Shown here one piece after another: positions 10,456-43,802 of a stretch of DNA of 64,000 nt. The stretch spans positions 64,770-128,769 of the forward strand of contig CAZFNI010000002.1 of NCBI GenBank assembly GCA_964520655.1, in the 5' to 3' direction. Under the pieces are notes generated by a model. It was given only the letters and a program-made list of their open reading frames with translations. It had not been told where the DNA came from and searched no databases. This DNA is from an uncultured Planctomycetales bacterium. GTDB taxonomy: Bacteria > Omnitrophota > Gorgyraeia > Zapsychrales > Fredricksoniimonadaceae. The first letter of the stretch is position 1, and every line of letters starts with the position of its first letter. The position numbers and the translations under genes were made by a program.

Positions 10456-11855
10456 TATGCACTCCTTGACTTAAGGATATATTGAGTTAATAAACGCACC
10501 CCGGCCCCTGTTGCCCCATGGCCGAAATAAAAACGACAATTACCGTCAACGTAGGCGCTTCCAGCGATATCCAAATGCGCCCAGGTCGTGTTGTTGGTAA
10601 ACTGGTGCAGGAATTCCGCTGCCGTGCAAGCCCCGCCGCCGCGCACAGAACTTGTGTTCTTAAGGTCGGCGATCGGGGATTTGATATATTCTTTAATTTC
10701 CGGATAGATGGGCAAATGCCAGGCGCGGTCATCTGTTTGCTCTGCGATCGCAGAAAGCTCTTTGGCTAAGCCGTCATTGTTGGAGAAAAGCCCTGAGTAA
10801 TCGAAACCTAAAGCAACGACGCAAGCGCCCGTCAATGTGGCCATATCGATCATGACCTCAGGTTTATAATTCTTGACCACATAGGCAAAAGCATCCGCCA
10901 ACACCAAACGGCCTTCTGCATCAGTATTACCGATCTCAACGCTTTTACCCGCGTATCCTGTATAGACATCACCGGGTTTGTATGCTTTTGAACCGATCGC
11001 ATTCTCAGCGATCCCTAAAACGAACAATAAATTCTTCTTCACATTTAGCGCGATGGTGTTCTTCAGGATACCGCAAACCGCCGCAGCGCCGGACATGTCG
11101 ATCTTCATGGTCTCCATGCTGCCGGTTGGCTTGATGTTCAAGCCCCCGGTATCGTAGGTCATCCCTTTACCAATGATCGCTGTAAAAGGATCATTCTTTT
11201 TACCGCCGGCATAACGCACGATGATCAACTTAGGCTCTTTGGGACTGGCTTGATTAACCGCCAGGTGTAAATTCAATCCTTTGGCTTTCAATTCTTTTTT
11301 GTTGAGGATCTCAAGGGAGACCTCTTTGCAACCTTTGACAAGGTCTTTCACTGTCTTCTCAAGGAATTCCGAGGTCACCGTGTCAGCATTATCATTGATC
11401 AGGTCGCGCGTTAAATTAACGCCTTTGCAGATCGTCGCCGCATCTTCAAACTCTTTCTTTTTGTCAGCGATAATAACAACATGCTTCTCCTTGATCGACT
11501 TGTCATCATCAGACTTGGATTTGTACTTATCCCAAACATAAGCACCGATCATAACCCCTTCGATAATAGCAATGATCGAGCGCTCATCCGTGCTATGCGG
11601 GATCAATTCCACATCTTTGATATTTTTGATCAGGGAGGACATGAGTGCTTTGCGTACTTCCATGCGCAAAGCCGTCAGCGTCAATGATTTCTCTTTTCCC
11701 AGACCAAGAAAGAGATACAGCACTTTGTCCTCAATAACTGGGAACAACTCACCCTTCTCAAGGTCCTTTTTTAACAATTTATGTTTCTGATCCTTGGCCA
11801 ACAGGACGATCACGGCTTCTTTGTTCGCTAAAGACTTGTTTGAAAATGAGATCAC
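10455..11855 (-). CDS. pepA: leucyl aminopeptidase (M17 family)
   Basis: NTDAEGRLVLADAFAYV M17 signature; 466 aa. Confidence 0.9.
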   Translation of the reverse strand: MISFSNKSLANKEAVIVLLAKDQKHKLLKKDLEKGELFPVIEDKVLYLFLGLGKEKSLTLTALRMEVRKALMSSLIKNIKDVELIPHSTDERSIIAIIEGVMIGAYVWDKYKSKSDDDKSIKEKHVVIIADKKKEFEDAATICKGVNLTRDLINDNADTVTSEFLEKTVKDLVKGCKEVSLEILNKKELKAKGLNLHLAVNQASPKEPKLIIVRYAGGKKNDPFTAIIGKGMTYDTGGLNIKPTGSMETMKIDMSGAAAVCGILKNTIALNVKKNLLFVLGIAENAIGSKAYKPGDVYTGYAGKSVEIGNTDAEGRLVLADAFAYVVKNYKPEVMIDMATLTGACVVALGFDYSGLFSNNDGLAKELSAIAEQTDDRAWHLPIYPEIKEYIKSPIADLKNTSSVRGGGACTAAEFLHQFTNNTTWAHLDIAGSAYVDGNCRFYFGHGATGAGVRLLTQYILKSRSA

Positions 11856-11874
11856 AACCTACCTCTTTCTATAA

Positions 11875-13164
11875 CTATCGTTTGGTAATGGGAACATAAT
11901 CCCGAAGCGTTGAACCTGTATAAATCTGGAATGGACGGCCGATCTTGGATGTGGGATCCTCGATCATTTCTTTCCAGTGCGCGATCCATCCTGGCATACG
12001 GCCAATGGCGAACATCACCGGGAACATCTTTAAAGGAATGCCGATCGCTCTTAAAATGATGCCGCTGTAAAAGTCCACATTGGGGTAAAGTTTGCGAGAT
12101 ATGAAATAATCGTCTTTCAGTGCTGCCTCCTCCAAACGCTTGGCTATATCAAGCAACGGATCATTGATCCCTAACTTGGCAAATAACTCATCAGCCTTGC
12201 GTTTGATGATCTTGGCACGGGGATCAAAATTACGGTATACCCTGTGACCAAATCCCATAAGTCGGAACTTGCTGTCTTTGTCTTTGGCCATCTCAACGAA
12301 TTTTTGAACATTCCCACCTTCGTTATGGATCTGTTCGAGCATCTCGATCACAGCCTGGTTCGCTCCGCCGTGCAACGGGCCCCACAAGGCGCAGATGCCT
12401 GCGGAAATGGAAGCATACAAATTCGCATGGGAACTCCCCACCAGCCTGACCGTTGAAGTGGAACAGTTCTGTTCATGGTCCGCATGCAAGATCAAAATGA
12501 CCTGCAGCGCCTGAACAGCTTCATCGATCAGGTGATATTCCCTCGTTGGTGAAGAAAACATCATATTTAAGAAATTTTGAACATAAAGCAGATCATGACG
12601 TGGATAAACTAAGGGCTCACCAATAGATTTCTTATAGGAAAAAGCACAAATCGTGCGCACCTTTGACAATAACTGCACTGCGATCCTGTCGATATCCTCT
12701 TTGGTCGGGTTTTCTTTGACCATGTTGGGATAATAGGCGGACATGGAACATACCATCGCGGATAAGATGCCCATGGGATGCGCGCTGGACGGGTAGGCAT
12801 CAAAGAAATTCTTCATGTCCTCATGGATCATGGAATGTTCATTGAACGCATTAGAAAAAGCTTCTAACTCTTTTTGATTAGGCAAACGCCCATAGATCAA
12901 CAGATAGGCTGTTTCAACAGCCGTAGAATGCTCCGCCAGCTGTTCGATGGGGATGCCCCGATAGCGCAGAATGCCCTTATCACCGTCAAGATAAGTGATG
13001 GCGCTTTTGCATGAACCAGTGTTGCCAAAACCCGGATCAAGCGTGATATAGCCGGTCGATGCACGTAATTTACCAATGTCGATCGCTTTTTCGCCTTCGG
13101 AACCGACGACAACCGGACAATCCAGCTGCTTCCCATCAATATTGATCAGGATATTATCTGCCAT
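11875..13164 (-). CDS. gltA: citrate synthase (type II)
   Basis: 429 aa; GFGHRVY catalytic motif; full-length similarity. Confidence 0.95.
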   Translation of the reverse strand: MADNILINIDGKQLDCPVVVGSEGEKAIDIGKLRASTGYITLDPGFGNTGSCKSAITYLDGDKGILRYRGIPIEQLAEHSTAVETAYLLIYGRLPNQKELEAFSNAFNEHSMIHEDMKNFFDAYPSSAHPMGILSAMVCSMSAYYPNMVKENPTKEDIDRIAVQLLSKVRTICAFSYKKSIGEPLVYPRHDLLYVQNFLNMMFSSPTREYHLIDEAVQALQVILILHADHEQNCSTSTVRLVGSSHANLYASISAGICALWGPLHGGANQAVIEMLEQIHNEGGNVQKFVEMAKDKDSKFRLMGFGHRVYRNFDPRAKIIKRKADELFAKLGINDPLLDIAKRLEEAALKDDYFISRKLYPNVDFYSGIILRAIGIPLKMFPVMFAIGRMPGWIAHWKEMIEDPTSKIGRPFQIYTGSTLRDYVPITKR

Positions 13165-13202
13165 GATGTTATGCCTCCGTTATTAATTCCGGTATTATAG
13201 TA

Positions 13203-14258
13203 CTATTGATACGACCTGTAAATCGCCTCTATATCTTTTGCTTGGGTTAAGAAAGCATCAACGACCCTGGGGTCGAAATGGCTGGCGCTCAAGCGTTTGA
13301 TCTCTCCCGCAGCCTCCACCCAGCTCCAAGCCTTTTTGTAAGGACGGATCGATGTCAAGGCGTCAAAGACATCCGCAACCGCGGCAATTCTCCCTACTAA
13401 AGGAATGTTGTCCCCTTTAAGGGCGTTAGGGTAACCGCTGCCGTCAAATTTCTCATGATGGGATAATGCGATCGTTTCTGCCATTTTTAAGAACGCGGAA
13501 TCGCTGCCGGAGAGCATTTGCGCGCCCCAAACAGTATGCTTCTTCATTAACTCGAATTCCTCTGGATCAAGCTTACCGGGTTTAAGCAAGATCGCATCAG
13601 GCACCGCCACTTTGCCGATATCATGCAACACAACGGTGTTCAAAATAAGCTCGCATTGGCCTAAACTCAACCCCATTCCTTTTGCCAGGACATGGGCATA
13701 ACGGCTCATGCGGTTGATATGCTCCCCCGTGTGCTCGTCGCGAAATTCCGCGACCCTCGCCAAACGCCACACAACATCCATACGGGTCTGATAGAGGTCT
13801 TTGGTTCGTTCTTTGACATTCTCTTCCAAAGTCAAGTTCTGTCCGCGCACCTGGTTGTAAAGTTTGCGCATCTCGATCACACTGCGGCTGCGCAGGATCA
13901 CATCGATCCTGTCATAGGGTTTTCTTAAAAAATCCTTGGCCCCCGCCTGGAAAGCTTTCTGCCTTAAAGTCTCATCCTCTTCCGCCGTGATCATGATCAC
14001 AGGGAAATATCCATCACGGTCAACGGATAAGAACTGGTCCATGACCTCAAGACCATTAAAATGAGGCATTTTGAAATCCAGAAGGACTAAGTCCGGCGCG
14101 ATGGCTTGATATAAACTGAGCGCTTTCGTAGAATCGGTAGTCAGGGTAAGGTTGGCGAATCCAGCCTCATTGAGGATCTTCTTGAGGATTTGGACATTAA
14201 GGACATTATCGTCGATGATCAGGATCTTGGCACTTAGGATTTGCTCTTCACTTAGCAT
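13203..14258 (-). CDS. response regulator with HD-GYP c-di-GMP phosphodiesterase domain
   Basis: CheY-like receiver (LIIDDN...DLVLLDFKMP) fused to HD-GYP (HHEKFDGSGYP). Confidence 0.85.
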   Translation of the reverse strand: MLSEEQILSAKILIIDDNVLNVQILKKILNEAGFANLTLTTDSTKALSLYQAIAPDLVLLDFKMPHFNGLEVMDQFLSVDRDGYFPVIMITAEEDETLRQKAFQAGAKDFLRKPYDRIDVILRSRSVIEMRKLYNQVRGQNLTLEENVKERTKDLYQTRMDVVWRLARVAEFRDEHTGEHINRMSRYAHVLAKGMGLSLGQCELILNTVVLHDIGKVAVPDAILLKPGKLDPEEFELMKKHTVWGAQMLSGSDSAFLKMAETIALSHHEKFDGSGYPNALKGDNIPLVGRIAAVADVFDALTSIRPYKKAWSWVEAAGEIKRLSASHFDPRVVDAFLTQAKDIEAIYRSYQ

Positions 14259-14259
14259 A

Positions 14260-16053
14260 TTAGATCATATATTCTGGGTCAAGGACAAGGGCATCAGCCA
14301 ACAAATTGACGATCTTTTTTACAGCAGTCTCTGAATCAAGGTTCTCCGGCAACGACAGATCAACATTGCCAACATCAAAACGATCATCGCCCATATTCAC
14401 AACGAACGTCTGATTGGGCCTGTTCAATGTTTTAAGCATCTTCAATTCCGCATCATCGATGTCCGTCACACTGGTGATCAAGATGAGCCCCGCATCGGTC
14501 ATCAAATGCGCTAATTCCCCTAATTGTACTAGCATCGCATATTTTCCCAAAGTCTTATCTTGCGAATCTCCAGAGGACAAGACCAAGCGATTGGATACAC
14601 CCAAAAAGTACACATTTTTGCCGATATTGAATAAGGCCTCTTCCAATGCTTTAGCGATACGCTGCTTTCCCGTATCGATCTTTCCAGAGATCACAATAAA
14701 CGCACTTTTATGTTCATATTTCTTGGCACGCAGATCTGGGGTGATATGAGACCTTTCCCAGGAGAATTCGCGTTTCTTGATGTGTGTATTAAGCGCATTC
14801 TCGTTGTCAAAGACCGGAGCAAGGATGATCCCGCCACCGGCGATCTCATACTGATCGACAATGACAAAACGCCCGGTCGCTGCGATATCACCGACGCAGT
14901 CAAATGCGACCGGTTTGGCGCATTCAAAGATACACTCCCCGACTTCATGTCGGGCCACATGGTCTTTCTTGACCGCGGACAATTCCGCGGCATTTAGCAC
15001 GTGAACGATCTCGCGCAAGATCACCGGCACCTGCTGGGTGGCGATCTTAAGCTTGTATGTTTTACCCAGAACAAGAGGCTGTTTGCCCATCCAGAAAATA
15101 TTCGCCTTGAATTTATCGCTGACGCTGGGCTGCTTTTCTGATGTTCTGACCATGATCTCGCCAGGACGGATATAGATCTCAGTTTCCATGGTAAAGCCTG
15201 CCGATTGGCCGGCAAAAGCTTCCTGGCGCAGCGGTCCATTAAAATATTCAACGGATTTGATACGGTTCTTTTTGCCCGACGGCAGGAAAATGATATTATC
15301 CCCAACTTTGGCCGTACCTGTTTCAATACGACCGGCAACAATACGGCGCTCATCGCCGCTTTCAGTGAATTTATAAATATCCTGCACCGGCATCCGCAAC
15401 ACTAATTGATCCGCAGGCGCCTGCTTCTGGAATTTATCCAAAGCCCCTAAAATATCTTCTCCCTTATACCAAGGCATTTTCGTGCTTTTTGAGGCAATAT
15501 TGTCGCCGTGAAAGGCAGCGATCGGAATAAAGAAATTAGGTGTAAGGTCGATCTCTTTAAGGAATTTGGTATATTCCGTCTTGATCTGATCGAACACTTT
15601 CGCATCGTAATTGACTAAGTCCATTTTATTGACGCACACGGCCAGATTCTTGATCCCCAAAAAACGCATCATGTAGCCGTGGCGTTTGGAATTCTCGCGT
15701 ATCCCCTCATGGGCATCAATGACAAGCAGCGCCGCTTCCGCCCGGGCCGCCCCGGAGATCATGTTCTTGAGGAACTCAATATGGCCTGGCGCATCAATGA
15801 TGATATAGTCTCTTAAGGCGGATTTAAAGAATGTGCGGGCGGTGTCGATGGTGATGCCCTGCGACTGCTCGTCCTTGAGAGCGTCTAGAAGGAACGCATA
15901 TTCAAATGGTTTGGCATTGCGCTGACACTGCAACTTAACGGCTTCCAATTTCCCTTCTGGCAGTGACCCTGTATCAGCCAGCAATCGTCCAACCAATGTA
16001 CTTTTCCCATGGTCAACGTGTCCAACGATGACCACATTCATTGCTTCTCTCAC
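14260..16053 (-). CDS. cysN: sulfate adenylyltransferase subunit 1 (CysN GTPase) fused to a degenerate APS-kinase-like (CysC-like) domain
   Basis: [10 protein letters not shown]1 motif, EF-Tu-like domains; C-terminal ~170 aa CysC-like but P-loop is GKIDTGKQ (GxxxxGKQ, not GK[ST]). Confidence 0.85.
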
Positions 16054-35032: not shown

Positions 35033-36421
35033 TTAACACTTCTCGCCCCTTAAAACATGGGGCGTGGCCTCAGTGATGCGGACTTTTAAAAGAGTGCCGA
35101 TAGGGTGTCCCTGGGTGGAAAGAACGACAAGCTTGCCTCCATCCGTTCTGCCGACACTATGCAGATGAGCCTTCTCGCCTGTGGCCGGCTCGATCAAGAT
35201 GGTCAACACTTGACCGATATGAGCTCTGTTCTTTTTAAGAGTGATCTCTTTTTGAATATCATTGAGCTGCATGATGCGCTCTGTTTTCTTTTCTTCGCTC
35301 ACATCATCGGGATATTTCTTGGAGGCAATGGTGCCTTTGCGCTCGGAATATTTGAACATGAACGCGGAATCGAATTCCACGGTCTTGATCACATCGATTG
35401 TATCCTTAAACTCTTCATCTGTTTCGGTCGGGAAACCAACGATCACGTCCGTTGACAGCACAAGTCCTGGGATGCGTTTGCGCATTTTATCGACCAAGGA
35501 CAAAAAATCCGACTTGGTGTAGGTGCGGCTCATCAGATCAAGGACACGGTCATTGCCCGCCTGTAAGGGCATGTGCACCTGTTTGCAGATCTTGGGATTA
35601 TTGGCCATCAGATCAATGAATTTATCCGGAAAATCTTTGGGGTGCGGTGAGGTAAAACGCACGCGTTCAATCCCCGAAACAAGGCTTACCACTTCCATCA
35701 GATCGGCGAAATCTTTATCCTCGTGGCGATAAGAATTTACGTTCTGACCAAGCAAAGTCACCTGCTTAAATCCCTCCGCCGCCAACTGCTTGACCTCTTC
35801 GACCACATTTTCAACAGAACGGCTGCGTTCCCGGCCACGGGTATAGGGCACAACGCAAAACGTGCAAAAATTATTGCACCCGCGCATGACCGCGATCCAG
35901 GCATTGATCCCTTCCTTGCGGCTAGGGGTTATGTCCGCATAGGTCTCGAATTCAGAAAGGGTGACATCAAATGGCTTCTCGCCAGAACCTGCAGCTTCAC
36001 TGATCAACTCCGGAAGACGTTTATAACTGTCCGGCCCCGCGATAAAATCCACGCGCATGCTGCGGTCTTCAAAGATCTCCTGACGCAGATTGGTCGCCAT
36101 GCACCCCAAGATCCCAATGAGCACAGGACGACCATTGCGTTCATGACGAATAGAATGCACCCGCCCATAGACCTTACGGTGCGCATTCTCACGGATGGCG
36201 CAGGTGTTAAGCATCACAATGTCGGCAACTTCTTCAGAAGAAACGAACTCATAATTGGCCTTGCGCAGGATAGAGCGCACCAGCTCCGAGTCGTATTCGT
36301 TCATCTGACATCCGTAGGTCTCCAATAGCACGCGCTTTCCTGCCGACGAGGCAGGGAGTTTCTGCTCTGGATTCCCGACGGTGTTGTCGTTTGTTGCGCT
36401 ATGTTCGACGTGTTGCTCCAT
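35033..36421 (-). CDS. miaB: tRNA-i6A37 methylthiotransferase
   Basis: ETYGCQMNEYDSE MTTase N-domain, radical-SAM CxxxCxxC, TRAM domain; N-terminal start ambiguous and overlapped by recombinase gene. Confidence 0.9.
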   Translation of the reverse strand: MEQHVEHSATNDNTVGNPEQKLPASSAGKRVLLETYGCQMNEYDSELVRSILRKANYEFVSSEEVADIVMLNTCAIRENAHRKVYGRVHSIRHERNGRPVLIGILGCMATNLRQEIFEDRSMRVDFIAGPDSYKRLPELISEAAGSGEKPFDVTLSEFETYADITPSRKEGINAWIAVMRGCNNFCTFCVVPYTRGRERSRSVENVVEEVKQLAAEGFKQVTLLGQNVNSYRHEDKDFADLMEVVSLVSGIERVRFTSPHPKDFPDKFIDLMANNPKICKQVHMPLQAGNDRVLDLMSRTYTKSDFLSLVDKMRKRIPGLVLSTDVIVGFPTETDEEFKDTIDVIKTVEFDSAFMFKYSERKGTIASKKYPDDVSEEKKTERIMQLNDIQKEITLKKNRAHIGQVLTILIEPATGEKAHLHSVGRTDGGKLVVLSTQGHPIGTLLKVRITEATPHVLRGEKC

Positions 36422-38001
36422 TTGATTCCTTCTTCGTAACATGTTTGCCACGGTTCATTTAATTCAAACGTGACAATCTCTTGATTTTGAATGTAAATCG
36501 ATTTAAAAATAATCCTCATAAACGTTTTTATGAGGAAATCCATCTGCTCACTATCCGGCGCTTTTCTTAAATGTAAAAGAAAATCCTGTGTTGCCCTTGT
36601 CAGATTGATCGAATTGCGTTTATCTAAAATCTTTAACTGTACACCTTTGATATCCTGCTTTAATTTCTTTTCTTCATTACGCAACAATTCCGCGCGATCT
36701 TTATAAATTTCAAGGTTGATGCTATCCTGCGCAAAGACTTCATACAAGCCTTTTTGTTTCTCGAGATTCTTGTTCAGTAATTTTGTTAATCCCTCCAACT
36801 CATCTAAAAAAATCTGCTCGGGCTGAGACGCATTGAGTTTGATCATGTCCCCGAATTCTTCTAGGACATGCAGGTTCTGGCATACCACATTAACGATGTC
36901 CCAAACCTGTTTGCCAATCGCATCCGCGGAAACGCTGGCATTGTCGCATTTCAAATATGAAACGCCTTTGGATGAACAGCGATACCACGGATGTTTAACC
37001 TTGGTGCGATGATTCGAAATAGACATAATACCACGAAAATTGCCATTGCACACTTTACATTTTAGCACACCCGAAAAATGATAGTTGTTGTTTTTAAACT
37101 TCACAACAGCATTCGTGCGATTACGTTTAAGTAAGACCGATGCTTCATCAAACTGCTTTTGAGTAATAATTGGTTCATGGACATTCGGCACCTCAACAAT
37201 TTTAGAAGGATCGTTGGCCACATATTTATAAGTTTTACCCTCTCCATCTTTTGTTTTAGCTCTTGGATCATAACGATGCCGGTTCCACACTAATGTACCC
37301 AAGTATACTTTACTTTTAAGAATCGTGCCGATGAATTTGGTGTAAAACTTACCGCCTTGGCGGGAAGATGTTCCAAGCCGATAAAAATGTCCGGCGATTT
37401 GCGAAGTGCTTTGGCCACTGATATAGCGATCATAAATTTCACGGACAATTTTTGCTTCTGGTTCATGTATTTCGAGCTTTTTAATGTCTTTGTTATAACG
37501 ATAACCATACGGTGCATAACGTGCCCCTTGCCAGTGACCTTTCTTAACACCCACCAGCATTCCCGGAAAAACACGTTCTACTAAACGGTTTCGTTCAAAC
37601 TCTGCGCAACTTCCCAACATTTGAATGGCCATCTTTCCGGCGCTGGATGTTGTGTCAAAAGGTTCGGTTGCGGATTTATAACCGACACCAAGAGAATCAA
37701 ATTCTTCCAAAAGTCCCAAGAGATCTTTTAAACGACGGCTTAAACGGTCTTGCTTATACACCATGACCAAATCAAACTGTTTATTACGCGCATCAAAAAG
37801 AAGCCTCTGCAAAGCAGGCCGATCCATATTCCCACCGGAATAGCCATCATCCATGTAGACGTCTCTGCCGGGAATACTGCAAAAAACCTCCCAGCCAAAG
37901 TTTTGCGCGTATTGCAACAAAAACGTGCGTTGCACCTCCAGCGAAAAACCTTCGCGGGCTTGATCCTCTGTGCTAACTCTTGTATATAGGGCGACTTTCA
38001 T
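36301..38001 (-). CDS. large serine recombinase (resolvase-N catalytic domain + recombinase domain + zinc ribbon + coiled coil)
   Basis: YTRVSTEDQ catalytic-Ser motif, recombinase domain, CKVCNG...C zinc ribbon; 566 aa. Confidence 0.9.
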   Translation of the reverse strand: MKVALYTRVSTEDQAREGFSLEVQRTFLLQYAQNFGWEVFCSIPGRDVYMDDGYSGGNMDRPALQRLLFDARNKQFDLVMVYKQDRLSRRLKDLLGLLEEFDSLGVGYKSATEPFDTTSSAGKMAIQMLGSCAEFERNRLVERVFPGMLVGVKKGHWQGARYAPYGYRYNKDIKKLEIHEPEAKIVREIYDRYISGQSTSQIAGHFYRLGTSSRQGGKFYTKFIGTILKSKVYLGTLVWNRHRYDPRAKTKDGEGKTYKYVANDPSKIVEVPNVHEPIITQKQFDEASVLLKRNRTNAVVKFKNNNYHFSGVLKCKVCNGNFRGIMSISNHRTKVKHPWYRCSSKGVSYLKCDNASVSADAIGKQVWDIVNVVCQNLHVLEEFGDMIKLNASQPEQIFLDELEGLTKLLNKNLEKQKGLYEVFAQDSINLEIYKDRAELLRNEEKKLKQDIKGVQLKILDKRNSINLTRATQDFLLHLRKAPDSEQMDFLIKTFMRIIFKSIYIQNQEIVTFELNEPWQTCYEEGIKWSNTSNIAQQTTTPSGIQSRNSLPRRQESACYWRPTDVR

Positions 38002-38039
38002 AATCTTATTTTGTCGGGAGTGTACCGTAGTTTCGCATC

Positions 38040-38255
38040 TTATTCAAAGGCTTCTTGGCCTTCTTTTGCTTTTAACTGTCTTGCCGAATGGGTTGATAAA
38101 AACATCTTGGTCAACGTTTCAATGCCATCATAAAACGACTTTCGCGCTTGCGCGATTTCGCCCGCAGAGAGTCCTTTGGCTTTTAGCTTTTCCTCCAAAG
38201 ATTCCCAGCCGCGGGGTTCTTTATGGCCTAAATTTGACGTTGTTTCCGTAATCAT
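38040..38255 (-). CDS. hypothetical small protein (71 aa) of the element
   Basis: ORF only. Confidence 0.3.
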   Translation of the reverse strand: MITETTSNLGHKEPRGWESLEEKLKAKGLSAGEIAQARKSFYDGIETLTKMFLSTHSARQLKAKEGQEAFE

Positions 38256-38281
38256 TTGACTTACCTAAAATAGGACATTCG

Positions 38282-38300
38282 GACATCGCCAATGTCCGGT
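38282..38300. promoter_or_regulatory. perfect 7-bp-stem inverted repeat CGGACAT-cgcca-ATGTCCG upstream of 71-aa ORF
   Basis: seen directly; flanked by additional GGACAT/GTCCGAC half-sites. Confidence 0.3.
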
Positions 38301-38426
38301 TTGTCCGACCCGATGTCGCACCGTAAAATTACGTTGTCGACGAGAAATTACCTTAACAGATCCTCTAACTCGTCCTTTACGACCACGACATGACATTTTT
38401 AAAATTTTGAATCACTGACCGTCCGC

Positions 38427-38472
38427 GCCTCGCCTGACCCGCACCCGGCACCCACCATGGAAGGACCCATTC
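38427..38472. repeat. GC-rich ~45-bp direct repeat copy A (CGCCTCGCCTGACCCGCACCCGGCACCC..GGAAGGACCCAT)
   Basis: second imperfect copy at 42811-42856. Confidence 0.7.
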
Positions 38473-38487
38473 TTTATTTGTGAACGT

Positions 38488-38774
38488 TGTGAGGCTAAAA
38501 TCCCCATCCTTACACCTTGCCTTTCCCACTCCTTTTTTACCCGTCGTGTGAGCTCTTTCTTTTATTTTTTATTACTTAAGAAAATTAGCCTCACACAGCT
38601 CACACTTTCACTTAACCAATTGTGTTTTAATCACTTAACCATGTGAGCAAGGCTGTGAGTTGAGCGTGAGCAAGAATTTCTACTCACACTTTAGAATGGC
38701 CTTTTCTCAAAAAGACTGTGAGTTGACTCATCTTCATCACCGTTGCTCACGCCCTGCTCACAGTCCACCTCACA
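38488..38774. repeat. iteron-like array: ~12 copies of TGTGAG / CTCACA in both orientations, with adjacent AT-rich stretch (38556-38590)
   Basis: motifs located at 38488, 38547, 38590, 38599, 38643, 38655, 38667, 38683, 38717, 38746, 38757, 38769; overlaps 3' end of Prim-Pol gene. Confidence 0.6.
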
Positions 38775-41054
38775 GGCCTTTTTGTCAATTTTACGCAAAA
38801 CAAAAAGACGCCTTCCTGTCCCGGCCTCCCGTTTGGGTAACCGGATGACATCAATCCCTGTGCTACGCATGACCGGAGCAATTCTCATTAATTCACTCGA
38901 TAACCAGCGGGGTGTATTGGGGATTGTTTTATCTTTTGTTCCTTCCGGGGTGATTATGGCCAATAACTCCGCCGCTGACCCTGACCATTCTCCATTATTG
39001 GTCATGACCAAAGTTGTTAACCGTCTGACCAAGGGGCTCTCCTCCGCCGTATTTTCCCATTTATGGTCAACCGACTCTTTGTAATTACTCAAAAATTCCT
39101 GACGAGAAAATCCAAGTTCATCCGCAAGTGCCATGCCCCACCGCACATAGTCAGCCATTCGGAATTTTTCATGACCAGTGACACTGTTCACATGATTCAT
39201 GGCTTTTGAAATAGCCGTAAAGAATCCACCGAGAATTCCCGGCAGAGCATTTTTCCATTCCTCGTTAATCTGCCCCTCGGAACGTCCATCTTTTAAAATC
39301 GGAATATCGAAGAGGATGGAACGATCCAGTAAATCCGGCCGCCACATCAAGCTGCCGATGCCATTGATGACAAAACAGCGGCGATAGGACCGGATAAATT
39401 CATCATCATTGGTATAAAGGCTGCGTTTCATGTCGCCCTCGCCGGTAACACCACGGCAGAGAAAATCGCTGAACCACTCAATAATTTTGGAAAGATTATC
39501 GAACGCACTCACCCAATGTTTGTCCGCTGTCATTTGTGCTTGTTCGAGGTCCTTGGGCGATGAGATTAACTCAACTTTGGAAGGATCAACCAGCCTTTTG
39601 ATCGCGCGGCTGTTGTAGGATTTCCCACTTCCCTGTTCACCGTTTTGGCTGACGATCACATGAGGAATATTGGGAATAAAATAGGTGGCCGTAGTCACAA
39701 TAAAAAGACATTGGTCATCCTCGTTGAGATTACAAAACCGGAGAATGTCTTTCGGATCGCCACCTAATACCGGCATGACTTGTTCATTTTGGTGACTATA
39801 ACGACGGAAAATAGGCGGCAGATAAATGATCTCCCATCCGTTTGGCGTAATGCGTACACCTCGCCAATCTGGAGTCGTTAAGTCGAAATAAATCGCTCCA
39901 CCGTAATGACCCACACGGTTAAAAAGCTCGATTTGCCGTGAGTCTTCACATTTGGCTTCCAACTGAATGATGGCCTGATTAATGGATTCGCTATTGGGCG
40001 GGGTTTTGTGTCTGGCGCGATAGCCTTTCGCTATCCAGTTGCGGAATCTTGTACTTTTGGTCTGACAAACTTCCGAATGCTTATCAATCGGCAAGACCAC
40101 ATAGAAGCTTCCTTGCTGGTCGCGAAAAGTATCTTTGATGATCTCTTCGCATTCTTTTGTGATGATTTCGCCTTGAGAAACTTTTTGTTTGGTTGGAGTA
40201 AAAACTTCATCGCAACCGCTGACTGCCTCATCGATTACGCCCTGACCGTAGGTCCGGCCATCGGCATAATGTTTTGTGTCCCATTTTTCCCTGAATAATT
40301 TGGATTGCCGGAAGATGGAATCCATGAGCGCCGGGTTTCGCCCCGTCCAAAATGCTAATTTGCCGCATAATGCTAGATCCGCTTCGCTTTGTGAACTGTA
40401 ATGACCTTCCCACTCTCCGCTAAAAAGCTGATTAAACTTATCGGCGTCTTTACTTTGAGCAATAGCTTCTAAGATTTCTTCAACACTTCGAGGCTTTTTC
40501 TTTTGTTTTTTGGTCTTTGGTTTGGAGGAGTTTTCTTCGATTAATTTGTTTAAACCCTCGCTTTGCTCTTCGATAACCGCAGGGTATTCTTCCAATCGAT
40601 TCCCTGTAAACGTAAAAAATCGACCATTGGTATAAATTTCTATTTTGGATTTTTTGATAGCGCGGCTGATTTCTCCTTTACAGATTACATGTACGCCCGT
40701 GCCGCTAGGTGAGAGTTCCGAATATGAACCAAGCCGTTTGAGGATTTCAATAGTATGAGATGCGATAATGCCATTCTTAACACAATTATCTAAATCAACG
40801 CCGACATACGGCGGTTGAAATACAAGCCCAATGGCATCGTAATTGCGCTGAATGGATAAATCTAAGGCATTCTCAAAATCAGTCCATGTGGAAGGGTCGT
40901 TGGACTTGGCACATTCGCCGGTTAAGGCGTTCATGGGGATTTTATCGGTCTTGCCTGGCCGGTCTTTACTGGGAACAATCTTGCACCCGACCCAATTGGG
41001 GAGTTTCTTTAATTCATCGGGCACATTGTTAATCAATTTCTGATAATCGATCAT
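38691..41054 (-). CDS. replication protein: bifunctional DNA primase/polymerase (Prim-Pol) N-domain + PriCT_1-like domain + C-terminal P-loop NTPase (SF3/D5-like)
   Basis: Prim-Pol N-terminus, LALCGKLAFWTGRNPALMDSIFRQSKLFREKWD (PriCT-like), Walker A GEQGSGKSY. Confidence 0.8.
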   Translation of the reverse strand: MIDYQKLINNVPDELKKLPNWVGCKIVPSKDRPGKTDKIPMNALTGECAKSNDPSTWTDFENALDLSIQRNYDAIGLVFQPPYVGVDLDNCVKNGIIASHTIEILKRLGSYSELSPSGTGVHVICKGEISRAIKKSKIEIYTNGRFFTFTGNRLEEYPAVIEEQSEGLNKLIEENSSKPKTKKQKKKPRSVEEILEAIAQSKDADKFNQLFSGEWEGHYSSQSEADLALCGKLAFWTGRNPALMDSIFRQSKLFREKWDTKHYADGRTYGQGVIDEAVSGCDEVFTPTKQKVSQGEIITKECEEIIKDTFRDQQGSFYVVLPIDKHSEVCQTKSTRFRNWIAKGYRARHKTPPNSESINQAIIQLEAKCEDSRQIELFNRVGHYGGAIYFDLTTPDWRGVRITPNGWEIIYLPPIFRRYSHQNEQVMPVLGGDPKDILRFCNLNEDDQCLFIVTTATYFIPNIPHVIVSQNGEQGSGKSYNSRAIKRLVDPSKVELISSPKDLEQAQMTADKHWVSAFDNLSKIIEWFSDFLCRGVTGEGDMKRSLYTNDDEFIRSYRRCFVINGIGSLMWRPDLLDRSILFDIPILKDGRSEGQINEEWKNALPGILGGFFTAISKAMNHVNSVTGHEKFRMADYVRWGMALADELGFSRQEFLSNYKESVDHKWENTAEESPLVRRLTTLVMTNNGEWSGSAAELLAIITPEGTKDKTIPNTPRWLSSELMRIAPVMRSTGIDVIRLPKREAGTGRRLFVLRKIDKKACEVDCEQGVSNGDEDESTHSLFEKRPF

Positions 41055-41349
41055 GAGTTGTTCCTTCCATCTTCTTGACGTTCTCAATCAATTTTTCATA
41101 GTAACTGTTGACTTGATTTTCAATCTCATCAGCGACCGGTTTATGAATCGGTTTAAAACAATGAACTCTTAGTCCCGTGACTAAATACCTCACTGGATAA
41201 ACCAGTCTGTATCCGGGCTGATCGATGCGCGTGTAGATGGCCACATCGCCGACAAAGAACGAATCATTAAGGACAAATGAAGCAAACGCCACCAATCCCT
41301 TATTGGGTCTCACCGGCACGATTTGAATTTCTGTTAACTTGATCGTCAT
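41029..41349 (-). CDS. SpoVG-like nucleic-acid-binding protein
   Basis: IQIVPVRPNKGLVAFASFVLNDSFFVGDVAIY...PGYRLVYPVR aligns with SpoVG core. Confidence 0.55.
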   Translation of the reverse strand: MTIKLTEIQIVPVRPNKGLVAFASFVLNDSFFVGDVAIYTRIDQPGYRLVYPVRYLVTGLRVHCFKPIHKPVADEIENQVNSYYEKLIENVKKMEGTTHDRLSEID

Positions 41350-41504
41350 CAATTTTTCCTCTCTATAAAATAAAAAATCCCGTGCAATAAGTTTCATTAC
41401 ACAGGATAGCAAAACCAAAAATTTATGGTATTTACTGCAACAGGCTGGAATTATACCGATTTCAGTCTACTGAATGCCTTTTAGAAAAAGACGTTTCAGT
41501 ATAG

Positions 41505-42563
41505 TCAACCCTTCTTTCTGGGCTTTGATGGAGGTTTTTTAACTTTCATCTCCTTAAGATATTTCCTCCATACTGCCATGTCTTGCCGTTTTTTGTGCTT
41601 CACCTTCTCTTGATATCGTTGATAGTACGTTTTGTTTCGTGCGCTCTTACCGCAGTCTTTCCCTTCACTTAATAATGAGCAGTATTTCTTCTTCTCATCA
41701 AAAACAAAAGCATTACCGCAAGACGCGCATCTTGAAATAATCTTTTTGTGATACAAATCATCAAGCATGTCATTGAGAAATGAAAAGCAGAATCTCGCCA
41801 GAGGATCTTGTGACTCTGCCACGCTTTCGACAAAGGCGTAGAGCCCTTTGAGATATTGCTTGTCGATATCTCCACCATTAACAGCCCAATTACTTATCTG
41901 ACCCACCGCATCTAATAAACGGAAAAATTCTTTCTTGCTGATTCCGGCATATCCAAGCTCAAAACAGAGGGTGTCATAAAAATGACTAAACCACGCGTGA
42001 ATATCCTCTTTTAAAAAATGCACGCTTAAACCGAAATAGGAAGCCGCAAATGGATAAATACATGCGTGCTTTGCTTCGAATATGTGACCAGTCTTAGGCT
42101 CAACCTCGATGGCTGGAGCAATGGCCAGATCCACCAAAATCACATTCTGCTTTTTACTCAAATGTTGCTTTAGATAATCACTTTCAACAAGACCAAAATC
42201 TTTCAACTCGACCGTGATAGGTGAAGGTCGTTTCTGTCCATGGGCCAACAAAGACTCCATTGCTTGAAAGTCCCCTTTTGTTCTGCCTAAAATCTTCCCA
42301 AACCGGTACTCCTCCGGAGAAATAGCAACGCCTGTAATATCAAAAAATGGATTCACCAAAGCCAATAAGTAAAGATCATAATAAAATTCCGAGGATTTTT
42401 CGGAAGGACCAGTAACGCTATAAGGGAAACTTAATATCTGCCCGCGCACATGGTAATCTTTATATTTCGATGGACAGAAAACTTCTATGGGCTTGGGAAA
42501 TTTTCTAGCGTACGGATATTTATCAAGCGGCGCCTTAGGGTGGTAGATATAACTCTTCGTCAA
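41505..42563 (-). CDS. hypothetical protein (352 aa) with C-terminal Cys4 zinc-ribbon and basic tail
   Basis: CASCGN...C...C then K/R-rich tail; no family recognised. Confidence 0.5.
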   Translation of the reverse strand: MTKSYIYHPKAPLDKYPYARKFPKPIEVFCPSKYKDYHVRGQILSFPYSVTGPSEKSSEFYYDLYLLALVNPFFDITGVAISPEEYRFGKILGRTKGDFQAMESLLAHGQKRPSPITVELKDFGLVESDYLKQHLSKKQNVILVDLAIAPAIEVEPKTGHIFEAKHACIYPFAASYFGLSVHFLKEDIHAWFSHFYDTLCFELGYAGISKKEFFRLLDAVGQISNWAVNGGDIDKQYLKGLYAFVESVAESQDPLARFCFSFLNDMLDDLYHKKIISRCASCGNAFVFDEKKKYCSLLSEGKDCGKSARNKTYYQRYQEKVKHKKRQDMAVWRKYLKEMKVKKPPSKPRKKG

Positions 42564-42810
42564 ATTCTCCTCACTTTTTCAAACTTAAACACCTTCAAAT
42601 CATATCAAAAAAGTATCGATTATTCCAACTTCATACCAAATGTCATTTGTAACATAGGCATGTTACACTTTTTGACGATCAACAGGATAAGGCTCAACTA
42701 CGAAATTTGTTATTCCCGACGAGGCTTGGCTTTCGAAGATTAAAGGAAGCGTTTGATCTGCCTTTAGTAACGTAACATTCAAAAAAATACTTTTTTGCGA
42801 ACGGGCTGCC

Positions 42811-42856
42811 TTCGCCTCGCCCGACCCGCACCCGGCACCCCCCTCGGAAGGACCCA
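42811..42856. repeat. GC-rich ~45-bp direct repeat copy B
   Basis: TCGCCTCGCCCGACCCGCACCCGGCACCCCCCTCGGAAGGACCCAT; about 40/46 identical to copy A. Confidence 0.7.
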
Positions 42857-42957
42857 TCAAAAAGCTGCATAGCTGAGCACATCAACCCTGCCAGACCACC
42901 CCCAATCAGCTCATGGGAACGGTTACAATGATGGGAAGCACTAATTTGGGGGAATCA

Positions 42958-43149
42958 TAAAGCAGTATTGATCATATCAACCAACATCTGACCATCAAAC
43001 GGTTTTTGCAGAAAACCCACAGCTCCTACTTTCAAAGCACGCTCGGCGGCATTGTCCTGTTTCTCGGCAGAAATAAAAATAACGGGGCGTTTCAATCCAG
43101 AATCAAGAATTTTTTTCTCTTCATGTGAAAAATAATAAAATTTACAATT
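42958..43149 (-). pseudogene. remnant of response-regulator receiver domain (C-terminal ~60 aa only)
   Basis: minus-strand frame translates to ...KFYYFSHEEKKILDSGLKRPVIFISAEKQDNAAERALKVGAVGFLQKPFDGQMLVDMINTAL*, no start codon and no N-terminal Asp pocket. Confidence 0.4.
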
Positions 43150-43151
43150 AT

Positions 43152-43802
43152 CTATTGTATCTTTCCATCCACGAGACTGACGAACCGGGAACCCAGAACA
43201 ACCCCTTCACTTTGATTGTGAGTGACATATAAAAGAATGGGCAAAAACTCCTGATGAAGCTTGAGAATTTCTTCCATCAAGCCGGACTTTAAATCCTCGT
43301 CAAGATGCGACAGCGGCTCATCCATCAAGAGAATCTTTGGCCTTGTCACAAGCGCGCGGGCAATGGCCACGCGCTGTTGTTCGCCGCCGGAGATTTCTCC
43401 CGGCAAGCTGTCCCGGTGCTTGGACAGCCTGATCTTTTCAAGCATGGCCTCTGTCCGCTCGCGAACTTCCTGGGAAACCAGCTTCCTGGCCTTGAGTCCA
43501 AAGGCGATATTTTCATAACAACTCATATGAGGCCAGAGCGCCAGGTCTTGAAATACCATTCCAATCCGCCTATGCTCGGGTTCCAAGAAACATTTTCCGT
43601 TTTGGGCCGCTTGGGCGCCTTCGATTTCCACCGTACCTTGATCCGGCTGAATGAAACCGGCGATGATCCTGAGCAATGTCGATTTGCCCGATCCCGAGGA
43701 GCCATAAATGACAATGCGTTCCCCTTGCTCTGCCGTCAGGGATAAATCTGTCAAAATCATTTTTCCATTGAAGGATTTGTAAATACGATCCAGTTTCAAA
43801 GA
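43152..43802 (-). CDS. ABC transporter ATP-binding protein (ferric/FbpC-like, NBD only)
   Basis: Walker A GSSGSGKST, LSGGEQQR signature, Walker B LLMDEP; N-terminal extension of the long ORF overlaps the permease gene and is rejected. Confidence 0.85.
   Translation of the reverse strand, partial: SLKLDRIYKSFNGKMILTDLSLTAEQGERIVIYGSSGSGKSTLLRIIAGFIQPDQGTVEIEGAQAAQNGKCFLEPEHRRIGMVFQDLALWPHMSCYENIAFGLKARKLVSQEVRERTEAMLEKIRLSKHRDSLPGEISGGEQQRVAIARALVTRPKILLMDEPLSHLDEDLKSGLMEEILKLHQEFLPILLYVTHNQSEGVVLGSRFVSLVDGKIQ

Follow-up and report, generated by a model that had tools for sequence, protein, structure and literature searches.

A conserved array of short opposed iterons at the stop codon of a PrimPol–helicase gene is the probable replication origin of a small integrative element in Omnitrophota

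In the 64-kb stretch of Omnitrophota DNA analyzed here (the window), short TGTGAG/CTCACA repeats form opposed sets, one of them flanking an A/T-rich tract, at the end of a gene for a PrimPol–helicase protein. Comparison of sequences makes this array the probable origin of replication for a small integrative element, with an architecture like that of SaPI/PICI and SCCmec origins. We favor this reading because the clustering is beyond chance, the layout is conserved, selection bears on the DNA and not on the peptide, and the variant of the motif is linked to residues of a predicted winged helix; because the protein joins a self-loading SF3 helicase fold to an NrS-1-type PrimPol–HBD N terminus; because the A/T-rich tract of low stability between opposed pairs of iterons is conserved; because the array accompanies the PrimPol gene whatever the neighboring genes; and because the known origins of the SaPI/PICI and SCCmec class share the layout (PMC9371898, PMC6092414, PMC7581432). 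The initial annotation of this DNA had proposed an origin for the Prim-Pol with the layout of a theta-type plasmid or phage. The comparison supports the origin, but its closest counterparts are SaPI/PICI and SCCmec, not the classical theta plasmids.

Repeats and A/T-rich tract around the PrimPol stop codon

Over the whole window, TGTGAG/CTCACA occurs 20 times for 23 expected, with no overall excess over chance. Half of these hexamers (10/20) fall within 38488–38774, at 38488, 38547, 38642, 38654, and 38717 on the plus strand and at 38590, 38599, 38683, 38757, and 38769 on the minus strand. With two additional GTGAG pentamers (38666, plus; 38746, minus), the total comes to 12, as in the first count of about twelve copies, in both orientations, over some 290 bp. 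Two GTGAA variants (38479–38484, plus; 38607–38611, minus) occupy sites that are kept in relatives, and the array in the window thus holds 12–14 copies of a motif of 5–7 nt. The density of hexamers is 34.8/kb in 38488–38774 versus 0.157/kb outside (a ratio of 222), so that the hexamer is not equally frequent in the rest of the window, and the Poisson probability of at least 10 hexamers in that interval is 9e-21. No other hexamer forms as large a cluster within 300 bp anywhere in the window (the runner-up has six copies).

Relative to the PrimPol stop codon, the array begins 83 nt upstream and ends 212 nt downstream. Because that codon is at 38691–38693, four copies are in the last 28 codons and the remainder downstream, which agrees with the placement first given, at the 3′ end of the gene and just past it. 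Eight of the 12 copies are non-coding.

Block A (38746..38774, minus strand), within the last codons, contains three direct iterons, TGTGAG, TGTGAG, and GTGAGC, with spacings of 12 and 11 nt, and codes for the C-E ... C-E ... G-V-S portion of the tail. The coding tail also contains a single iteron (38717..38722, plus strand) that is inverted with respect to block A in this clade; at this site, most relatives carry a direct copy instead. Directly after the stop codon comes another iteron (38683..38688, minus strand), and most relatives have one 0–10 nt past the stop. Block B (38642..38670, plus strand), kept in relatives, has three iterons with spacings of 12 and 12 nt and is inverted with respect to block A. 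Together, blocks A and B form a 32-nt imperfect inverted repeat (I1) around the stop codon.

A spacer element, CAATTGGTTA (38613..38622, minus strand), is found 10–19 nt before block C, with the family consensus CAAnnnGTTA (base frequencies in 67 loci: C 75%, A 82%, A 90%, then G 82%, T 85%, T 100%, A 81%). By sequence resemblance, the element fits CAANNNNTTR, the core of the IHF consensus. The window spacer also agrees at 7/8 bases with the NrS-1 primase site TTTGGTTA (PMC8718748), a resemblance that is a lead only. Block C (38580..38611, minus strand) is made of one GTGAA and two TGTGAG with a spacing of 9 nt, then the flank GCTAATTTTC (family consensus of the block, TGTGAGGnTTGTGAGGCTA), and constitutes the left arm of an inverted repeat about the A/T-rich tract. 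The right arm is block D (38479..38503, plus strand), with TGTGAA and TGTGAG at a spacing of 9 nt plus the flank GCTAAAATCC; it is inverted with respect to block C and kept as GGATTTTAgcCTCACaatgCTCAC in relatives. The arms of this C/D repeat (I2) are 20 nt long, 85% complementary, and 86 nt apart. On the far side of the A/T-rich tract, there is a single iteron (38547..38552, plus strand), of which only part of the family has an equivalent.

The A/T-rich tract (38553..38589, no strand assigned) is a candidate DNA-unwinding element by its base composition and low stability. The run at 38556–38590, initially described as pure A/T, contains in fact 29 A+T out of 35 (83%), with a longest pure A/T stretch of 15 nt (38560–38574). 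In stability, the tract still ranks second from the bottom among the 40-mers of the element and within the lowest 0.3% of those in the window. In 67 relatives, the interval between C and D measures 84–116 nt (mostly 93–116 nt) and always contains a 30-mer with 22–27 A/T. No DnaA-box-like 9-mer (with at most one mismatch) occurs in the array of the window; such 9-mers are present in 26 of 87 relatives, a two-fold and non-universal enrichment. Origins of the SaPI/SCCmec class do not require a DnaA box.

Conservation in related loci and variants of the motif

The comparison set contains 87 distinct related loci, mostly from Omnitrophota MAGs. The four-block layout is common to them, and order, orientation, and distance from the stop codon persist in loci whose proteins are as little as 53% identical. 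It consists of three to four direct copies within the final codons and three inverted copies past the stop, then two copies, an A/T-rich interval of 95–115 nt, and two inverted copies. At least eight GTGAR copies are present within 460 nt around the stop codon in 81/87 loci (median 13), at a density about 10 times that in the remainder of each locus. Throughout the 87 loci, the spacing between copies on the same strand is overwhelmingly 9–12 nt. Block C was located in 67 loci, in nearly all of which it starts 87–89 nt past the stop, and the base 5′ of GTGA is a T in ~80% of the sites. Conservation as coding sequence only, which had been named at the outset as a finding that would speak against an origin, does not apply, since the repeats, non-coding ones included, keep position, orientation, and spacing in the 87 distinct loci. 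The genes downstream vary by locus, but the array is invariably found at the PrimPol stop codon; the comparison indicates that the array travels with the PrimPol gene, not with the neighboring genes.

Two variants of the repeat are found across the related loci, TGTGAG (~48 loci) and TGTGAAC (~20 loci), with GTGA as the invariant core. In TGTGAG loci, the tail peptide is C-E/V-S; in GTGAAC loci, it is V-N, with the motif in a different reading frame. The wing preceding the tail and the terminal RPF are constant between the two groups. Because the peptide and the frame change while the motif stays, selection bears on the DNA motif rather than on the tail peptide. The same observation weighs against the suggestion that the cluster results from chance, from composition, or from a repetitive C-terminal peptide. 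Four copies do lie in the coding sequence for a repetitive C-E/G-V-S tail, but the Poisson probability given above, the non-coding majority of copies, the persistence of the motif over the peptide, and the maintenance of the array in 87 loci refute this explanation, to which we attach practically no probability.

Three of the 444 alignment columns separate TGTGAG from TGTGAA loci perfectly, namely 717 (W vs. A), 739, and 749 (R vs. K). These three and the next seven best-separating columns are all within residues 677–757; judged from the alignment, the residues that go with the motif variant all belong to the predicted winged helix. The K/GAA state arises at at least three separate places on a neighbor-joining tree (helicase core, unbootstrapped). 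The link between residues and motif could reflect the exchange of an entire DBD-plus-array cassette, not point co-evolution.

These comparisons bear on the possibility that the array is a transcriptional operator or terminator, with the PrimPol or another protein of the element controlling read-through or the promoter of a downstream operon (orf43, orf71, recombinase). The array does lie between two groups of genes read in the same direction, operators commonly contain inverted repeats, and a conserved GC-rich element with short direct repeats occurs between the array and the next genes. However, 12–16 sites over 300 bp with an A/T-rich centre exceed the needs of an operator, and the position is fixed to the PrimPol stop codon while the distance to the next gene (0.3–1.8 kb) and its identity vary. 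In addition, the promoter-like conserved element is a distinct sequence farther downstream, and the motif variant tracks the C-terminal domain of the helicase protein itself. We consider an operator or terminator unlikely; a regulatory side role alongside the origin is possible, for example in autoregulation or copy control via blocks A and B. The GC-rich conserved element is 45 nt long, with its short direct repeats 3′ of the array and before the next genes; as a structured RNA it was rejected, with no supported pairs in RNAalifold.

The inverted repeats could also form a structured RNA or DNA hairpin, either a 3′-UTR stabilizer, a terminator, or a stem–loop like that of pRN1 in which the sequence is irrelevant. 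Single strands do fold better than shuffled sequences (z = −3.1 for C/D and −4.3 for A/B), and the origin of pRN1 is a stem–loop (PMC4234260). But z-scores of −3 to −4 reflect nothing more than the inverted copies of the motif. The spacers of the C/D arms are 48% identical versus ~44% expected, with essentially no covariation; those of A/B have a complementarity of 0.40 within loci versus 0.37 between loci, and the spacer lengths of the arms differ. The absence of spacer covariation in both pairs of arms led us to reject a conserved hairpin. A hairpin also leaves no place for the direct copies (for example, the fourth of block A and the one after the stop), and the motif itself is conserved, whereas pRN stem–loops conserve structure and not sequence (PMC4234260). 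A scan of 36000–43500 against Rfam at E ≤ 1 gave no match. A hairpin as the reason for the array is highly improbable; cruciform extrusion as part of the function of an origin is possible.

The PrimPol–helicase protein and its element

The gene of the proposed initiator (38691..41054, minus strand; stop codon at 38691–38693) is an open reading frame for a PrimPol/SF3-helicase/winged-helix protein of 787 residues, 100% identical to a database protein (P0001) that starts with the ATG at 41054. The N-terminal ~300 residues match the NrS-1 PrimPol and HBD (Pfam PF22763, E 1.4e-27, above the cut-off), with PDB sequence matches to 6a9w and 7ola_A and to NrS-1 N300 at E 4e-45; Foldseek gives 2e-18 to NrS-1 PrimPol–HBD, at ~27% identity. 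For the helicase/winged-helix half, searches of Pfam, NCBIfam, and PDB sequences returned no useful family. In a first AlphaFold model (full-length, 25 sequences), residues 438–637 were poor (pLDDT <50), and Foldseek on that model found the PrimPol domain only. A second model, restricted to residues 300–787 and built with 84 sequences (pLDDT 85.9), overcame the poor region. It resembles in Foldseek the SF3 primase–helicases 5dgk, 7ola_C, NrS-1 CTR, D5/E5, and SaPIbov1 Rep, with modest TM-scores of 0.38–0.53 for this single AlphaFold model. SCCmec Cch (5dgk_A, E 1.4e-9) is among the best fold matches; SaPI5 PriRep (7ola_C) has E 1.4e-8 over 454 columns and TM 0.48/0.53, and 8tch is also matched.

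The C-terminal domain (coding region 38790..39035, minus strand; residues ~674–755; wing tip REAGTGRR) is predicted to be a winged helix from its secondary structure pattern in the model, three helices and then a β hairpin at 694–755, with pLDDT 72–91 in the winged-helix region. The Prim-Pol/helicase of the initial annotation combines the parts that the origin reading calls for, namely an NrS-1-type PrimPol with HBD, an SF3 helicase fold, and this predicted winged helix.

The gene belongs to an integrated element of ~7 kb, with a large serine recombinase and adjoining miaB. The order in the window is PrimPol–helicase, array, small ORFs, and recombinase. The recombinase gene (36301..38001, minus strand; Pfam Resolvase, Recombinase, and Zn_ribbon_recom), outside the origin, abuts the 5′ end of miaB, as it does in ~30 relatives where the gene is 67–92% identical and 3′ of the array. 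Its best NCBIfam matches are CcrB (186 bits) and CcrC (151 bits), for curated cut-offs of 900 bits; it is a large serine recombinase and not a Ccr equivalog. Across loci, its placement varies, downstream in some and upstream and divergent in others. Only the PrimPol–helicase and the recombinase are present in all loci. A SpoVG-like protein and orf71 were rejected as iteron binders and are not universal partners of the array, because both are missing from many loci with an array. A terminal overlap indicating a circular or excised copy was observed in 0/53 whole-contig loci.

The gene content also bears on the idea of a centromere-like site for partition, or one for packaging or recombination, to which a segregation or packaging protein would bind. 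Plasmid centromeres, like parC of R1, do have two clusters of short repeats with a spacing of about one helical turn, a likeness to the present array. Among the proteins of the element, however, no ParA/ParM/ParB-like or terminase gene product was found, and apart from the recombinase, the PrimPol–helicase is the only protein common to all loci. The sites of large serine recombinases are simple, ~50 bp long, and located at element ends, unlike this internal array of 300 bp. We regard this explanation as very unlikely.

Among annotated plasmids and phages, no full-length relatives of the 787-residue protein were found; the matches are partial, at 26–42% identity, to the N-terminal PrimPol in phages and to the helicase/winged-helix part in plasmids. 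In distant homologs (26–34% identity), other hexamer clusters occur at the end of the gene in 12/57 viral contigs versus about one expected. In plasmid pH6Ac (12 kb), a count by eye gave about seven copies of TGTC[CA]A 3′ of the homologous gene; the automatic hexamer scan flagged none. The complete genome of Ca. Velamenicoccus archaeovorus includes one element of the family.

Known origins and a proposed mechanism

In SaPIs and PICIs, Rep binds specifically its own iterons, and rep with ori drives autonomous replication. The initiators known there include PriRep5 of SaPI5 and the Rep proteins of SaPI1 and SaPIbov1. The origins, directly after the rep ORF, contain 6–12 iterons of five or six nucleotides around an A/T-rich centre, with two or more on each side, opposite in orientation to those across the centre (PMC9371898, PMC6092414). 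The present array is similarly at the end of the gene, in the same place in 87 loci, with C (two to three copies) and D (two copies) inverted around the 29/35 A+T tract. The initiators are alike in being self-loading SF3-type helicases with a C-terminal winged helix (predicted here from the model), and SaPI5 has a primase fusion, PriRep5, whose N-terminal primase matches the 787-residue protein (E 7e-45). On the other hand, the helicase/winged-helix part is without sequence-level similarity to that of SaPIs, the host phylum is Omnitrophota instead of Staphylococcus aureus for SaPIs, the iterons begin within the coding sequence of the initiator, and there are two opposed sets (A/B and C/D) versus one. 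PICIs are elements of ~10–15 kb with a tyrosine integrase, an Stl-like master repressor, induction dependent on a helper phage, and packaging genes. The present element, at ~7 kb, has a large serine recombinase in place of the tyrosine integrase and no recognizable Stl-type repressor or packaging genes; neither repressor, terminase-small-subunit, capsid-remodeling, nor helper-interference families were found among its ORFs.

In SCCmec, the helicase recognizes 5-nt iterons through its C-terminal domain, and priming starts preferentially at these iterons (PMC7581432), the same double use as that proposed below for GTGA. The succession of helicase gene, short iterons, and large serine recombinase gene is also the same, the putative SCCmec ori being between cch2 and ccrC. 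But the recombinase scores 186 bits for a Ccr cut-off of 900, a fused AEP PrimPol replaces the CCPol–MP pair, there are at least 12 iterons in opposed sets versus three direct ones in SCCmec, and integration is beside miaB and not at the 3′ end of rlmH (orfX) as for SCC.

[quoted passage not shown] ORF904 of pRN1 has the same succession of PrimPol, SF3 helicase, and winged helix with the origin directly 3′ of its gene; here, the 20-nt arms of I2 enclose 86 nt and the iteron contains GTG. In contrast to pRN1, an archaeal (Sulfolobus) plasmid, the present element is integrated and bacterial, its sequence motif is conserved, and its spacers are without covariation.

Classical theta origins (pPS10, RK2, R6K, F) and the ori of phage λ share with the array the repeated initiator sites beside an A/T-rich unwinding element. 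Those origins use mostly direct iterons of 17–22 bp, a Rep_3/WH1–WH2 Rep or λ O, and the host DnaA, DnaB, and DnaG. Here, a motif of 5–7 nt forms opposed sets, helicase and primase are parts of the initiator, and there is neither a match to a Rep family nor a DnaA box in the array.

Of the solved structures, that of phage NrS-1 PrimPol, a primase–polymerase whose helicase-like C-terminal domain is ring-shaped, is nearest to the N-terminal PrimPol and HBD, and the C-terminal fold matches 6k9c and 6lrb; the identity is ~27%, and no iteron origin is described in the NrS-1 literature examined. NrS-1 PrimPol recognizes 5′-GTGA-3′, starting at the base 5′ of GTGA, and the recognition sites of the primase are 5′-GTGA/GTGG-3′ and 5′-TTTGGTTA-3′ (PMC8718748). 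Both resemble sequences of the array, the iteron core GTGA and the spacer ATTGGTTA, which constitutes a lead.

From the repeats, their position and conservation, the folds, and the variant link, we infer a mechanism of binding, melting, loading, and priming. Once the element is excised, the winged helix at the C terminus would bind the iterons, T-GTGA-G(S), as duplex DNA. These recur at about one helical turn in opposed sets, and oligomers would form on both sides of the A/T-rich tract that separates block C from block D. The other set, blocks A and B around the stop codon, may serve for control or as an additional zone of loading. The tract would then melt, SF3 helicase rings would load and travel outward 3′ to 5′, and the fused PrimPol would prime DNA synthesis without the host primase. 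With GTGA, the primase recognition site of the related NrS-1 PrimPol, as their core, the iterons may double as priming sites, because this polarity would send primers outward behind each helicase.

A tentative extension, which we find conceivable but somewhat doubtful, is that one hexamer is read twice by one polypeptide, as duplex by the winged helix and as single-stranded 5′-T|GTGA-3′ by the helix-bundle domain of the PrimPol. Duplex specificity would be set by positions 5–8, covarying with W717/A and R749/K, and reading of the melted iteron by the helix-bundle domain would give the primer start. With primers running from the iterons outward behind the 3′–5′ rings, origin recognition and leading-strand priming would therefore be tied to one sequence. 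Part of the origin would be written inside the frame of its own initiator, the linker peptide being dictated by the DNA sites.

The TGTGAG/Arg and TGTGAA/Lys loci, two naturally occurring groups, offer a ready swap of specificity, and the match of the iteron core to the GTGA primase site makes the coupling of recognition and priming testable in vitro. If the origin reading is correct, one protein and ~300 bp of DNA would form a self-contained replicon, belonging to a family of small integrative elements widespread in Omnitrophota. The SaPI/SCCmec style of origin, with a self-loading helicase and short opposed iterons, would then reach well beyond the Firmicutes and extend to an NrS-1-type PrimPol fusion. 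To our knowledge, genetic tools for Omnitrophota are nearly lacking and plasmids have not been described in the phylum; the gene with its array is a candidate minimal replicon for vectors.

The iteron array and its layout in relatives

TGTGAG and its complement CTCACA occur 20 times in the 64-kb window, against 23 expected. Ten of these hexamers fall within 38488-38774 which, with two GTGAG pentamers (38666, +, and 38746, -), gives the about twelve copies reported in the initial annotation. That annotation had proposed this array as an origin for the PrimPol protein (a 787-aa PrimPol/SF3-helicase protein with a predicted winged helix; gene at 38691-41054, -). The hexamer is 222 times denser there than in the rest of the window (Poisson P ~9e-21), and no 300-bp stretch of the window contains any other hexamer more than six times. 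Two GTGAA variants, at 38479 and 38607, occupy positions that are kept in relatives. The array lies, as described, at the 3′ end of the gene and just downstream: the stop codon is at 38691-38693, with four copies in the last 28 codons and the remainder intergenic. The tract at 38556-38590, taken for a run of pure A/T, in fact contains 29 A+T out of 35, the longest pure run being 15 nt; only one 40-mer of the element is less stable, and the tract ranks among the least stable 0.3% in the window. Second in strength among the hexamer clusters of the window is TGACCA/TGGTCA, with six copies within 300 bp (38982-39280), inside the PrimPol ORF (region coding for residues ~680-700).

Loci encoding relatives of the PrimPol protein were fetched from genomes (34) and metagenomes (80), and 87 of the 114 are distinct in sequence around the gene end. 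The repeats are conserved in these homologs: at least eight GTGAR copies per 460 nt around the stop are present in 81 of the 87 loci (median 13), a density ~10 times that of the rest of each locus, with neighboring copies on the same strand 9-12 nt apart (about one helical turn). One common block layout is observed throughout. Read on the strand of the PrimPol gene, block A lies within the final ~90 nt of the ORF and has three direct copies (a fourth is usual); one further copy comes straight after the stop codon, and then block B with three inverted copies. A spacer, CAAnnnGTTA (38613-38622, -, in the window), is conserved in 67 loci between B and C, 10-19 nt ahead of C. Block C, with two direct copies (TGTGAGGnTTGTGAGGCTA), was located in 67 loci and starts, with few exceptions, 87-89 nt past the stop. 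The interval between C and D is mostly 93-116 nt and holds in every case a 30-mer with 22-27 A/T; block D follows, with GGATTTTAGC ahead of its two inverted copies. Blocks C and D form the arms of an inverted repeat (I2) around the A/T-rich tract, and blocks A and B those of a second one (I1) around the stop codon.

One T position of the CAAnnnGTTA spacer is invariant across the 67 loci. The IHF consensus is WATCAANNNNTTR, and the spacer fits the core of that consensus. In the window, two copies of TGGTTAAGTGA stand at a distance of 23 nt (38608-38618 and 38631-38641). A perfect DnaA box, TTATCCACA, is found just beyond block D in some loci of the TGTGAA type (L012, L015, L016, and L071, 287-294 nt past the stop) and near-perfect boxes between blocks B and C in others; the window contains no DnaA box.

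The PrimPol protein and its probable reading of the repeats

The PrimPol protein has a 100% identical entry in the database, on a 204-kb NCBI contig, and its relatives are almost all from Omnitrophota MAGs. Residues 1-300 comprise an NrS-1-type PrimPol and a helix-bundle domain (Pfam PF22763, E 1.4e-27, in agreement with Foldseek; E ~5e-45 against NrS-1 and SaPI5 PriRep in the PDB). After residue 300, Pfam, NCBIfam, and PDB sequence searches found no family. A structure model of residues 300-787 (84 input sequences, pLDDT 85.9) matches SF3 primase-helicases: ASFV PrimPol, SCCmec Cch (5dgk), the NrS-1 CTR, poxvirus D5/E5, SaPIbov1 Rep, and SaPI5 PriRep (7ola_C; 454 aligned columns, TM 0.48/0.53). 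In the predicted structure, the last folded unit (~694-755) has three helices and a β hairpin and can be read as a winged helix with REAGTGRR at the wing tip. A disordered tail of ~30 residues follows, with an acidic stretch and RPF at the end. Nearly all family members end with such an acidic stretch and R-P-F or R-P-Y (e.g., EVDSDRPF, 38694-38720, -, in the window). The tip of bacterial SSB, DDDIPF, recruits replication proteins; the acidic R-P-F/Y end recalls it and may, by analogy, be a docking motif for host factors.

The array always accompanies the PrimPol gene, and the other neighbors vary: in one group of loci the recombinase gene lies downstream with the same orientation, and in a second group it is upstream and divergent; the gene next after the array changes from locus to locus; and the SpoVG-like gene and orf71 (a small ORF between array and recombinase) are often missing. 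The repeats are of two types, TGTGAG(S)A in ~48 loci and TGTGAAC(G)T in ~20. Among 444 aligned columns (residues 315-758), there are only three positions at which TGTGAG and TGTGAA loci share no residue: 717 (W vs. A), 739, and 749 (R vs. K, in the wing). The ten best separating columns are all in 677-757, the predicted winged helix, and loci with mixed arrays all have R. These correlations point to the C-terminal domain of the PrimPol protein itself as the probable reader of the repeats. A neighbor-joining tree of the helicase core places the K/GAA loci in one large clade, as a pair within R/GAG loci, and on basal branches, a scatter that suggests at least three switches or exchanges. The link between motif and residues would fit equally point co-evolution and the exchange of domain plus array as a cassette.

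Across sites GTGA is invariant, and T precedes it in ~80%. Block A encodes C-E..C-E..G-V-S in the TGTGAG group and V-N..G-V-N in the TGTGAAC group, with different codon phases (TGT GAG vs. GTG AAC); the wing upstream of the tail and the RPF/RPY end downstream are unchanged between the groups. Since peptide and codon phase change while the motif stays, the DNA sites dictate the tail peptide and not the reverse. The arms could instead be kept for base-pairing, and they do fold better than shuffled sequence, but no covariation between arms was found in the spacers for either C/D or A/B, which makes maintenance for pairing very improbable.

The element and its neighborhood

The genes of the element are all on the minus strand of the window. 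In order of transcription, they encode a 352-aa protein with no assigned function (41505-42563), a weak SpoVG-like protein (41029-41418; Pfam E 1.3e-6, just under the cut-off), the PrimPol protein and, after the array and two small ORFs, a 566-aa large serine recombinase (36301-38001). With miaB adjoining the 3′ end of the recombinase gene and an ABC-transporter gene on the other side, the set looks like an integrated element of ~7 kb. In ~30 relatives, the recombinase 3′ end overlaps the annotated miaB start by ~100-150 nt (36301-36451 in the window), which points to a conserved integration site at the miaB 5′ end; the MiaB profile match begins only at ORF residue 40-42. No excised copy was seen among the fetched loci. 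The SpoVG-like ORF overlaps the start of the PrimPol gene, and in the database relative P0071 SpoVG and PrimPol-HBD domains are within one protein. The SpoVG-like protein may bind nucleic acids as a partner of the primase; its gene is missing from many loci.

A conserved GC-rich element of ~45 nt, ATGGGTCCTTCC..GGGGGTG..GCGGGTCGGGCGAGGCG, is present downstream of the array in 47 of the 87 loci, 209-1700 nt past the PrimPol stop across the fetched loci. After it come GTCAGTGAT, a run of A/T, and short direct repeats varying by locus (TGTCATGTCG, GTTACGTTAC, and others). Two direct copies in the window (38426-38470 and 42813-42857, -) bracket a 4.4-kb module (352-aa ORF, SpoVG-like gene, PrimPol gene, and array), each standing ahead of an operon. 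The GC-rich element, for which no Rfam match or conserved RNA structure was found, may act as a promoter/operator or, like repeats in composite SCC islands, be of att type. Between its left copy and the ABC-transporter gene, 42955-43125 (-) resembles a decayed receiver gene of a response regulator: its start, MKRKKFLILD, is cut off by a stop codon, and further on a different frame encodes a receiver domain's C-terminal end. In locus L008, the cargo of the element after the array is a restriction-modification system of type I (HsdR- and HsdM-like ORFs, 10754-15220), which an excisionase-like HTH gene precedes.

Relation to known origins and possible priming

The array is not a classical theta origin according to the motif and DnaA-box analyses. 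SaPI origins come directly after the rep ORF, with six to twelve penta- or hexanucleotide iterons, at least two on each side of an A/T-rich center in opposite orientation, bound by the winged helix in the C-terminal domain of the self-loading SF3-type Rep (PMC9371898). All sequence-level features of this type are present in the window layout and, as in SaPI5, the primase is fused to the helicase protein. SaPI-like origin features are also described in Gram-negative PICIs (PMC6092414). The element itself is not a PICI, since its integrase is a serine and not a tyrosine enzyme, and neither repressor nor packaging genes were seen among its ORFs. SCCmec has a putative origin in the interval from cch2 to the serine recombinase gene ccrC; the C-terminal domain of its helicase binds 5-nt iterons, and priming preferentially starts at these (PMC7581432). 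An SCC identity is unlikely too, with a recombinase far below the Ccr cut-offs and integration at miaB, not rlmH. In pRN1, the origin is a stem–loop directly after the PrimPol-SF3-wH gene (PMC4234260). More distant helicase/wH homologs (26%-34% identity) occur on small plasmids and viral contigs. At the gene end of 12 of 57 viral contigs (~1 expected), a different hexamer is clustered above all or nearly all control windows, with 9-13 copies in several. In the 12-kb plasmid pH6Ac, inspection by eye gives ~seven copies of TGTC[CA]A in the stretch past the gene, a group not flagged in the automatic scan. These clusters suggest that iteron arrays recur at the gene end across this class of proteins.

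The NrS-1 PrimPol recognizes 5′-GTGA/GTGG-3′ through its helix-bundle domain, starting at the base 5′ of the site, and has a second site, 5′-TTTGGTTA-3′ (PMC8718748). The recognition site GTGA is the iteron core here, with a conserved 5′ T. In the window, the spacer reads ATTGGTTA-A-GTGA (38608-38620, -), including the family-conserved GTTA, and agrees with TTTGGTTA at 7/8 bases, a match that alone is not significant (~0.2 expected by rough count for a region of this size). With the blocks oriented as they are, primers begun at iterons would run outward from the A/T tract, in the direction in which a 3′-5′ SF3 ring would move on the same strand. This polarity would fit a possible double use of the iterons, in origin recognition and in priming, as proposed from their resemblance to the NrS-1 site.

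The origin interpretation of the initial annotation is supported at the level of sequence, and we consider it probable that the array is a SaPI/SCCmec-type origin for a PrimPol-SF3-helicase initiator in an Omnitrophota serine-recombinase integrative element. The origin sites would then be written into the reading frame of their own initiator, with an iteron core equal to a known primase recognition site.
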